Assembly: GCA_963676565.1 (NCBI GenBank)
Contig: OY781089.1
Coordinates: 2,176,001-2,240,000, forward strand
Direction: 5' to 3'
DNA length: 64,000 bases
DNA from: Halarcobacter sp.
GTDB lineage: Bacteria; Campylobacterota; Campylobacteria; Campylobacterales; Arcobacteraceae
In this document: in pieces, positions 6,001-9,000 of the stretch
How positions within the stretch are numbered: the first letter of the stretch is position 1
Layout of the letters: every line of letters starts with the position of its first letter
Position numbers: made by a program

Positions 6001-9000
6001 GAATGAGAATACAATACCCATACCTAAAACCATAAACTTCAATGCTTCAGCAATTAAGTTAGTTTCCATATTACTCCCCGTGGTTACCATCGTGTAATTT
6101 AGTATTACTATTTTATATTAAATATGCTTTAGTAAAATTTATTTTCACCCCTAAATTAGAGAAATTTTGGAATTTTAGTCAATGAAAAAAATTATAAAAT
6201 TTTGTTACCACATTTAAGTAAAAAATTATCAAAAGTATGAAGTAATTTTATAACATTGCTAGTTGCTTTTTCAATTTTTTGTGACATTTTCTATCCTTAA
6301 TTAAATAATATGTCAAATTTTATACTTTTTTTTCAAATCACTTGAAAAATATTGCATTTTGTAATATAATACAAAAAAGGAGCAGATATGTTACAAGTTT
6401 TTGAGATAATTGAAAAGTTAAAAGATATCTTAAGTAAAGATGGAAAATGTGGAAAGGTTTTTGATAAAGATGTTGCTAGTGCACTTGATTTGAGTCAGGT
6501 TAATTTTGCAACTATGAAAAATCGTGGAAAAATTCCATTTTCGAATATTTTGGATTTTTGTGCAAAAAAGAAAATTTCAATAAATTGGTTACTTTACAAT
6601 CAAAATCCTGGTTCATTAGTTGATTCAACAGATAAGTACTGGATTAGATATTATCCTGAAGTAAATGTAAGTGCAGGTGGTGGTGCTTATGAAAGTGATG
6701 ACGCATATGAGAGTTTAGAAGTTCCTCCATATTTTATAAATATGTTAGGTGGAAAAGAAAATTTAAAAAATATAGATGCTATTAATGTAGTAGGTGATTC
6801 AATGGAACCAACATTAAACAGTGACAATATTATATTTATAGATAAAACAAGAAATGATCTTTCAAGAGATGGAATTTATGCCTTTACTACAAATCATGGA
6901 CTTTTTGTAAAAAGAATCCAAAGAAGAGTAGATGGGAAATTAGATGTAATATCAGACAACAAAGACTATCCAACACAAATATTAGATAAAAATGAAGTCT
7001 TTGTTGTGGGTAAAGTGGTTAGTAGTTTTGGTATGATTTATTAAAGTAGTGATGGAATGTTAGCTTCTTTTGAAACTTGTTCATAAAGTTCATCGTAGCT
7101 AACACCAATAAAATAGACTGCGTTAAAACTATTTTTCTTTAAAAATTCTTTTAAATCAGATAAAGAATTTATAAAAGTGTAGTCTATATCTTTATTATCA
7201 TCAATTTCTTTAGTTGTTAAATAGATAACTTTTGCATAATTGTATTTTTTTTCTAAGTATTTAACTTCTTTTAAAATTAATTCATCATTATCTTGAGCAA
7301 TTAAAAATTTATCACTTCTTCCATAATCTGTATGATTTATTAGTTTATCAACAAATATAGGTTTTAAATTATGAAATTTTCTTAGTTTATTTAAATCTGC
7401 ATCAAATCCTAAGTAACTATAAACATCTAAAAACTCTGTAATATATAAACTTGAAATTTTTATTTTTGAAAAATATTTTTCTTGAAAAGAGAAACTTGTT
7501 TCAAAAATTGAATGTTCAATTAAGTTTTTAATTTCATAATCTTTTGTGTTGAAATTAAAATTAACAGGGTATATATTATCAAGTACATTTTTATCTGAAG
7601 ATATTATTGTATCATTCTCTTCTATTTCATCAATCAGTTTAAAAAACTTTGTTAAATCTTTAGGAACTATTTTAATATTTGTATGAACTGTAGTTTTTAA
7701 AAGAATTTTAAATAAATCGTAACTAACATTATTACAATAAAAAGCATTTAATCTTTTATTTGATAATAAGTATCTTACAAGTTTTACAATTGCATCATTT
7801 ATTGCCTCAACAAAAATCCAGGCAATTTCATTGTCACTAATAGAAACCTCTTTATCAACTACAATTGCAAAGGCACCATTTTCAATTGCTGTAGGAATAT
7901 CCTCATCATTTTTTACAATGAATAGGTCACCCTCTCTCACTTTTTTAGGATTGGTTTTAATTGAATATATAAATGAGATTGATGGATGATTTAATAATCT
8001 TCCATCAACTATGTCTAAAATAGAGGTGATTTGCACTAGCTTATTTTAGTTCCAGATTTTTTTGGTGTTTCAGGTCTAATAAGAGATAAACCATTTTCAT
8101 CACGTGCAGCCATCAACATACCTTCACTTAGCATACCCATAAGTTTTGCAGGTTTTAAGTTTGCAACAACACATGCCTGAGTTCCAACTAGATCTTTTGC
8201 CTCATAAAATTCTTTTATTCCAGCTAAGATTTGTCTATTTTTCCCTTCACCTAAATCAACTTGTAATTTTAAAAGTTTTTTAGATTTTGGTACTTCTTCG
8301 GCTTCTACAATTGTTCCAATTTTTAAACTTGTTTCAAAAAATTGATCAATAGTAATTAAATTATCATTTTCTTCTTCATCATTATCGTTTTTTTGTTCTT
8401 TTTTAGCTTTTGATTTTTCTTCAGGTTCAGCTTTTGAAACTTCAGGATTACTAGCTTGTTCTAAAAGTACTTCTTCAATTCTTGGGAAAAGTTGCTCAAC
8501 TTTTGTAATTGTAGTTTCACCTAAAAGCTCTTTATTCTTTATTAGTTTATTATAGGTTTCTGTATTAATCTCAATACCTAAAGATTTTGCAATTTTAGAA
8601 ATTTTTTCTGGCATTACTGAATCTAAAAGTAGGGCAACTTTAGCCATAATATTTGTAATTAATGCAACTAAAGCCATAGCTTCTTCAGTTTTACCTTCTT
8701 TCATTTTAGCCCATGGTTCATAATCACCAATAGCTTTATTTGCAATAGTTAATACTTTCCAAATATCTTCAAGATATCTATTTAACTGCATATTAAAGAT
8801 ATAACTTTCAACATTCTCTAAAATCTCATTAACTTCATCAAGTTCTTTTTTGTGAAACTTTTCAACATCTACAGAATCTATTTTAAAATCAAAATATTTC
8901 CCACTCATACCAGAAATTCTATTTAATAAATTACCTAAATCATTTCCTAAATCTGAGTTAATTCTATCCATAAGTGCTTTTTGAGAAAAATCTCCATCTT

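Follow-up and report, generated by a model that had tools for sequence, protein, structure and literature searches.

What does the work of LexA in bacteria of the phylum Campylobacterota, if anything does? The lack of LexA and of an SOS response in Campylobacter is often extended to the whole group. For Campylobacter itself, the absence of LexA, and hence of a global SOS response, is noted in the accessible text of PMC5665897. The question is raised by a stretch of 64,000 nucleotides from Halarcobacter sp. (the window; coordinates are those of the window unless referred to the genome, which comprises 3.34 Mb at 28% G+C). It encodes a 218-amino-acid CI-like repressor (6388-7044, plus strand) preceded by a palindrome that recurs upstream of recA and other repair genes. 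From the sequence comparisons described here, we consider it highly probable that this chromosomal, phage CI-derived S24 repressor does LexA's job, that is, binds the box, represses a regulon and is released by RecA-stimulated self-cleavage.

The repressor is predicted to combine a helical N-terminal DNA-binding domain with an S24 autopeptidase, on the evidence of Pfam, PHROG, a structural model and fold matches. As the first-pass annotation had it, the phage-CI helix-turn-helix is a weak match (Phage_CI_repr, residues 26-72, E 0.014, below the cut-off) accompanied by an S24 domain (residues 93-211, E 1e-18); the full length of the protein matches phrog_4 (transcriptional repressor, E 6e-39). 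In the AlphaFold model (mean pLDDT 87), the N-domain is entirely helical and the S24 part forms a barrel; the structures closest to it in fold are those of the lambda-186 hybrid repressor and of 186 CI (7jvt, 2fjr), followed by LexA. The predicted recognition helix, residues 37-45 (QVNFATMKN; 6496-6522, plus strand), co-varies in sequence with the type of box among homologues. The predicted scissile bond, Ala96-Gly97 (codons at 6673-6678, plus strand), lies in a poorly ordered loop of the model (pLDDT below 50 for residues 96-98). Ser138 (6799-6801, plus strand), the predicted catalytic nucleophile, aligns with the serine of the LexA GMSM motif, and Lys175 (6910-6912, plus strand), the predicted general base, is located 37 residues further, as in E. 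coli LexA by alignment; a profile alignment pairs the two residues with the LexA catalytic pair. All these residues are where they had previously been placed, and Ser95, Gly97, Ser138 and Lys175 are invariant across 71 homologues. Database entries name the protein family “S24 family peptidase,” “LexA family transcriptional regulator” or “phage repressor protein C”; the protein is thus already annotated, its role is not. Among the matches listed in a protein-database search, there were only close relatives, including the Aliarcobacter butzleri orthologue at 82%.

The repressor itself matches neither PF01726 nor TIGR00498, and the claim that this genome has no LexA above the cut-off holds for TIGR00498, with the control exceeding the cut-off in 6 of 14 reference genomes. 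The LexA DNA-binding domain (PF01726) is absent above the cut-off from 200 of 201 Campylobacterota genomes, and the match in G103, read by eye, is an unrelated short winged helix behind an AlbA/Schlafen-like ORF. Canonical LexA was therefore rejected as the binder of the box, no canonical LexA being found in the 201 genomes of the phylum. This genome has another S24-like ORF, at roughly 679.8-680.2 kb, which was rejected as the regulator because it has neither a helix-turn-helix nor a box.

The main operator at the repressor gene, O1 (ATTGCA-TTT-TGTAAT, 6351-6365; 6349-6367 in its 19-bp extended form), is a palindrome that differs by one mismatch from the recA site ATTGCA-ATT-TGCAAT (genome position 376512). 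It fills the 17-nt spacer between the predicted -35 hexamer TTGAAA (6342-6347, plus strand) and the predicted -10 hexamer TATAAT (6365-6370, plus strand), covering also the first base of the latter, in agreement with its earlier placement between these two elements. The hexamers jointly match the consensus at 11 of 12 positions; the -35 is kept in most of the family loci, and the -10 is conserved across them. The distance from O1 to the ATG is 22 nt, and the sequence in between includes a Shine-Dalgarno AAGGAG (6377-6382, plus strand). A possible weak second site, O2 (ATGTCA-AAT-TTTATA, 6310-6324), has a single good half and is uncertain; because it overlaps a predicted minus-strand -10, it may be part of the divergent promoter. 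In a leave-family-out test, every one of 34 orthologues of the family was preceded by an O1-type box, and so were 19 of 20 others from the family that had no part in matrix training; the scored region upstream of the G004 orthologue contains no self box.

Across the whole genome, ATTGCA-N3-TGCAAT occurs 18 times at no more than one mismatch. Our recount agrees with the nine intergenic sites reported earlier, against a mean of 0.35 and a maximum of 2 in 40 order-3 Markov simulations of the intergenic DNA; by site count, the motif tops 180 6-N3-6 palindromes of the same composition, the median for which is 0. The genes 3' of the nine sites are recA (TIGR02012), a DinB-like Y-family polymerase, the TIGR03916+TIGR03915 radical-SAM repair operon, PemK, ORF6N, an integrase, the repressor and two unassigned small ORFs; recA, dinB, the radical-SAM operon, PemK, ORF6N and the repressor had been correctly named as targets in the first pass, and the integrase is discussed below. 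The true motif is wider and looser than the 15-bp form, approximately ATAT-NN-CA-WWW-TG-NN-ATAT. Picking the best palindrome de novo for each promoter proved noisy and was replaced by matrices. The matrix for the box type found here (A) has 19 positions and was built from 36 distinct sites, all upstream of repressor genes, with the threshold set at 9.6 bits, the 99th percentile over 3195 upstream regions in this genome. Because the loose site-picking pattern was set after the recA promoters had been seen, the test is not entirely blind. The top seven of the 3195 regions were, in order, those of recA, dinB, a 121-aa ORF, the repressor, the radical-SAM operon, a UvrD-like helicase and radA. The scored upstream regions of uvrB, uvrC, mfd, ruvC, gyrA and ssb in this genome contain no box, nor does that of its SRAP-like gene; uvrA, ruvB and recN were not located by the motifs used. 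A homologue of the boxed 121-aa ORF is also boxed in G031.

The comparison across the phylum employed families numbered f1 (Arcobacteraceae, with g9, a genus within it) to f13, of which, by the names of identical proteins, f5 is Lebetimonas, f7 Sulfurimonas, f8 Nitratiruptor, f11 Sulfurospirillum and f12 Hydrogenimonas, and f3 includes Campylobacter; f2 is probably Helicobacteraceae and f4 probably Sulfurovaceae. Of the 60 family recA loci, 50 were fetched; the genomes are related, so that the counts are not independent events. A box above threshold precedes recA in 47 of 47 genomes of f1 outside g9, 11 of 11 in f7, 1 of 1 in f10, 4 of 7 in f11 and 1 of 5 in f4, where three further genomes score 6.6-9.2 bits. 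None was detected at recA in f9 (0/1), f6 (0/2), f5, f8 and f12 (0/14 together), g9 (0/3) or f2 and f3 (0/9), and the reversed control exceeded the threshold in 1 of 100 cases. The six of 30 genomes previously described as lacking the box lacked it at no more than one mismatch; with the wider motif, the misses at recA disappear from the family outside g9. G111, G185, G214 and four of the five f4 genomes have no recA box above threshold despite A-type repressors. With the same threshold and upstream windows of 250 nt, the radical-SAM operon, which is confined to A-type genomes among the 78 searched, is boxed in 23 of 23 cases (one copy at a contig end dropped), mostly exactly 38 nt upstream; radA is boxed in 14 of 22 A-type genomes versus 0 of 8 others; and dinB is boxed in f1 (7/8), f10 (1/1), f11 (2/4), f7 (2/9) and f4 (1/4), with no box in g9 (0/3) or f3 (0/8). 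Most of the f7 dinB genes have a weak core at a fixed distance. In 15 further genomes, sites with the exact pattern lie upstream of recG, a comM-like ATPase, radC, mfd, integron integrases, methylases and ORF6N/Bro/KilA genes, and part of them precede unrelated genes.

Under the mechanism that we propose, a dimer of the repressor would bind the dyad ATAT-NN-CA-WWW-TG-NN-ATAT through a 186-CI-type helix-turn-helix and would repress its own gene, recA, dinB, radA, the radical-SAM/TIGR03915 operon, the UvrD-like helicase, integron integrases, ORF6N/Bro/KilA and PemK, because the sites overlap the -35/-10 region of the promoters. DNA damage would yield single-stranded DNA, on which RecA filaments would stimulate self-cleavage of the repressor at Ala96-Gly97 by Ser138 and Lys175; cleavage would turn the regulon on, and autoregulation would reset it. 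The biochemistry of LexA and CI is established, and it is by analogy with it that we infer binding, RecA-dependent cleavage and induction; the repressor is probably a master regulator. Among 24 sequencing runs listed, there was one RNA run, with a small share; of four runs checked, one, a metatranscriptome, yielded only contigs of relatives, and the others 0-1 reads.

The same gene set could be read differently: even with the repressor as the binder of the box, its regulon might be a programme for competence/recombination or for general mobile-element stress, one that responds to another signal or is non-inducible as in the case of 186 CI, rather than a RecA-triggered SOS response. The boxed recA, radA, comM-like gene and radC are also typical competence genes, nucleotide-excision genes carry no box, and the top fold match, the CI of phage 186, is not known to be RecA-cleavable. 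We nevertheless hold this reading to be improbable, given that Ser138, Lys175 and Gly97 never vary among the homologues, that the repressor is physically coupled to dinB in several families and that dinB, the radical-SAM/UDG-linked operon and the integron integrase are recognised SOS members according to the accessible portions of PMC8565304 and PMC3108266.

That the S24 repressor is the binder of the box is supported by all in silico tests. The three g9 genomes retain recA, dinB and radA, have no S24 protein and have no box at these genes; genome-wide, the strict box pattern has no match in g9, and a looser pattern yields one low-scoring match in each of two genomes. The A-type recognition helix, (N/T)FATM, goes with an ATATT(G/T/A)CA-type box, and the PE(H/N/Y)(F/L)S(M/I/V)L-like helix of f5 and f8 (B1 type) with the box AATTAACA-WWW-TGTTAATT. 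In leave-family-out tests, the A matrix recognized 54 of 57 A-type self promoters and the B1 matrix none of the 57, whereas B1-type self promoters were recognized by the B1 matrix in 10 of 10 cases and by the A matrix in 0 of 10. The box variant of f12 occurs twice in the genome of G147, at the repressor/dinB promoter and at an integron integrase (the pattern was written after both were known). The B-type repressors of f5, f8, f12 and genus g48, along with several paralogues, are divergent from dinB, and f5, f8 and f12 have no recA box; in G185, the repressor and dinB form one operon.

An unexplained exception is G026 (96% complete), where boxes precede recA and three integrases and the assembly contains a prophage-type paralogue and no orthologue of the repressor. 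The persistence of the box in this genome would fit a regulon read by another transcription factor, with the S24 gene merely one of the targets. This possibility, too, appears remote, slightly more so than the competence reading: the type of box tracks the recognition helix of the S24 protein across families and within G147, the box and the protein were lost together in g9, and among the members of the regulon, the self site varies least. Finally, the location of the self site within a conserved promoter might suggest that the palindrome belongs to the promoter, or arises as a by-product where DNA is rich in A and T, and is no operator; this is largely refuted by the excess of sites over expectation, the dyad symmetry that is retained while inner bases vary on both arms, the different positions of the box relative to the -10 in the recA and self promoters, and the restriction of the box to repair and mobile genes with reversed controls near zero.

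The S24 repressor thus favoured as the regulator occupies a conserved, non-prophage context. The divergent neighbour (5830-6090, minus strand) is a housekeeping gene of the oxaloacetate-decarboxylase gamma family, and the convergent neighbour (7041-8036, minus strand) is a Mur-ligase-like gene followed by metG; the Mur-ligase-like/metG side is kept in 30 of 30 loci, and the carboxylase side (the gamma gene or the next carboxylase gene upstream) in 27 of 30. In the family sample, an intact, single-copy orthologue (58-100% identity) is present in 54 of 61 genomes including this one, and in one more, G059, it is split into pieces. The six family genomes without an orthologue are the three of g9 (96-99% complete), two that are less than 80% complete, and G026; in G039, which is less than 80% complete, a contig stops at the expected position of the repressor. 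Outside the family, orthologues were detected at E<1e-45 in 40 of 44 genomes of other free-living families (f4-f13), and in f2 and f3, none of 147 genomes has one at this threshold, just relatives at 30-35%. Hence, of the initial view of the protein as the SOS regulator of Arcobacteraceae, the SOS-type gene set and the S24 binder are supported in silico, and the restriction to this family is not.

Among the weaker relatives inspected, most lie among prophage genes; the nearest (30-41%) adjoin late-control and methylase genes of prophages and include phage records, such as Campylobacter phage CAM-P21, and the phage records that match with the best E-values are those of Helicobacter and Campylobacter phages. 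In a midpoint-rooted tree, from which 18 near-identical family rows were left out and which does not include the LexA of Bacteroidetes, FddR or HdiR, the chromosomal and prophage-type copies split with support of 100/99; the A and B types form an open fork, with A without f4 at 83/82. Because the order of A and B is an open fork, we do not present any direction of evolution as established; it is plausible that the cassette preceded the regulon and the phage repressor that of the host.

The closest parallel that we found is the non-canonical LexA of Bacteroidetes (Sanchez-Osuna et al. 2021, PMC8565304). As described in the available text of that paper, these are chromosomal S24 repressors of the COG2932 type with a phage-like helical N-domain in bacteria without canonical LexA, and a palindrome with a fixed spacer precedes their own gene, dinB and a radical-SAM/UDG-type repair operon. 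Set beside the definition given there, the Halarcobacter protein is encoded at a chromosomal, non-prophage locus, has a phage-type helix-turn-helix with an intact S24 domain, and shares one palindrome with repair and translesion genes; judged by every criterion of this concept that can be addressed with sequence, the repressor fits it. The definition also covers specific binding, for which helix-box co-variation gives indirect support, damage induction with RecA-stimulated self-cleavage, and a gene for cell-cycle arrest; PemK and the two unassigned small ORFs are boxed here. FddR of Francisella (Perez-Varela et al. 2026, PMC13148647, as far as accessible) is likewise a co-opted phage S24 repressor, autoregulated and divergent from translesion polymerases, which is the layout of the B-type units in f5, f8 and f12. 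The box described here differs from those published for Bacteroidetes LexA and FddR, proteins that were compared by description (accessible parts of PMC8565304 and PMC13148647). HdiR of Lactococcus/Streptococcus and UmuDAb of Acinetobacter are also S24 proteins that replace LexA, but differ in having small regulons around mutagenic polymerases and in belonging to unrelated lineages (PMC8565304, accessible part).

With canonical LexA (TIGR00498, PF01726 + PF00717), the repressor shares an S24 domain with a Ser/Lys dyad and an Ala-Gly site, a self- and recA-centred regulon, and sites at integron integrases; it differs in lacking the winged-helix DNA-binding domain, in the box, and in a regulon that here does not include uvr genes. 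By these sequence features, it would work like LexA yet fails LexA membership on its DNA-binding domain. In fold and nearest sequence relatives, it resembles phage 186 CI and the Mu-like prophage repressors of Campylobacter, Helicobacter and Arcobacter, but unlike a prophage CI, it is single-copy, has housekeeping neighbours across the family, and has sites spread over the chromosome, rather than residing in an immunity region to which its operators are confined. The accessible text and supplements of PMC8565304 and PMC13148647 do not mention the Campylobacterota genera that we looked for, and no description of the regulator, box or regulon was found in the literature covered, mostly other than subscription papers. 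We conclude that the system is real and kin to the non-canonical LexA of PMC8565304, and was itself not found in print for Campylobacterota.

A broader scenario, to which we assign even chances, is that the Campylobacterota never lacked SOS as a phylum: a phage repressor of the 186/Mu type would have been captured, first as a small repressor-dinB unit still present in the vent families f5, f8 and f12, and enlarged into a recA-centred regulon in Arcobacteraceae, Sulfurimonas and Sulfurospirillum; Campylobacter, Helicobacter and reduced Arcobacteraceae would have lost the repressor and the boxes together, and incoming integrons and islands would re-tune their promoters to the box of the host repressor. 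If the S24 repressor acts as we propose, the free-living members of the phylum and the enteric Aliarcobacter butzleri would have a programme of recombination and mutagenesis that damage induces and for which a regulator and a box can be named, and one more case would be added in which a phage repressor was independently captured to regulate SOS. A stepwise assembly of such systems is proposed in the accessible part of PMC13148647; with the small cassette and the full regulon both alive in one phylum, this proposal becomes testable.

Integron integrases, present in 20 of 80 genomes, add a mobile component to the regulon. Outside the B types and g9, an A box is located upstream of 18 of 19 scorable integrase copies in 16 of 17 genomes (two fragments were dropped, and three copies come from G026); in g9, the copy is interrupted by stops and has no box. 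The “prophage-type integrase” initially listed among the targets in this genome does have a site, but was rejected as an independent target: the sites at genome positions 1419872 and 1419890 correspond to the dinB operators that stand in tandem in G056, and are the displaced operator of dinB. On their 3' side is a 33-bp duplicate of the dinB start, and the intact dinB is found 52 kb further, behind another promoter with its own box. As read from the sequence, a 52-kb island is inserted at the native dinB operator; its arrival left a second copy of the first 33 bp of dinB and supplied a new promoter with a box. The island therefore restored both the gene and its control. In the broader scenario above, integron integrases would for the first time come under an SOS repressor that is not LexA and has a motif of its own. 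The A box at integrases also closes a gap in what is published on integrons: the only motif that the accessible part of PMC3108266 reports at the promoters of integrases is the E. coli LexA box, and its supplement, as available, lists the functional integrase of Sulfurimonas denitrificans without a box. In the upstream DNA printed for this integrase in the same supplement, an A-type site, ATGACA-AAA-TGCAAT, is recognizable by eye.

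In the Halarcobacter sp. genome, the start of dinB is interrupted by a 52-kb island (loci L032 and L033; genome positions 1419872-1419960 and 1471826-1472000), which contributes a new dinB promoter with its own box, the predicted operator palindrome of the CI-like repressor. As a result of the insertion, the native tandem dinB operators now face the integrase of the island, which, accordingly, may come under damage control. The cassette form of the repressor may be mobile, given that two copies of the divergent repressor/dinB unit (L196 and L197) are located on C2, a small (39.9 kb) second contig of genome G126.

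An A-type box lies upstream of a homologue that is carried by a prophage in G238, a genome of the Campylobacter family (L200; 16.5 bits), and another upstream of a long-branch paralogue adjacent to restriction-type genes in genome G032 (L189; 11.4 bits). Two genomes of the Campylobacter lari group (G201, L202, and G086, L204) encode a 33% relative of the repressor at a non-prophage locus adjoining a ferritin-like gene; this relative, which lacks an A-type box, possibly represents a separate domestication.

In the repressor-less genus g9 (genomes G008, G047, and G029; L126-L128), recA directly follows the preceding gene, with no intergenic promoter, unlike in the remaining members of the family. 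The only integron integrase found in this genus (G008, L329) is truncated, contains two stop codons, and lacks the box.

The repressor gene overlaps the convergent gene for a Mur-ligase-like protein by 4 bases (window 7041-7044), leaving no space for a terminator between the two. In genome G111 (L085), a perfect box lies between the repressor and a divergent gene that, judging from its N-terminal motif, is presumably nifH-like. The orthologue in G059 (L393), an 86% complete assembly, is split over two frames, reflecting either an assembly error or a pseudogene.

Elsewhere in the Halarcobacter sp. genome, a stand-alone, UmuD-like ORF of S24-like type (L040:1840-2210; genome about 679840-680209) carries the Ser and Lys motifs and has neither an HTH nor a box. 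The third-best box in the genome is that of a 121-aa cysteine-rich protein (L034:2292-2654; genome 1768288-1768653), a candidate new member of the regulon, whose homologue (53%) in genome G031 is likewise boxed.
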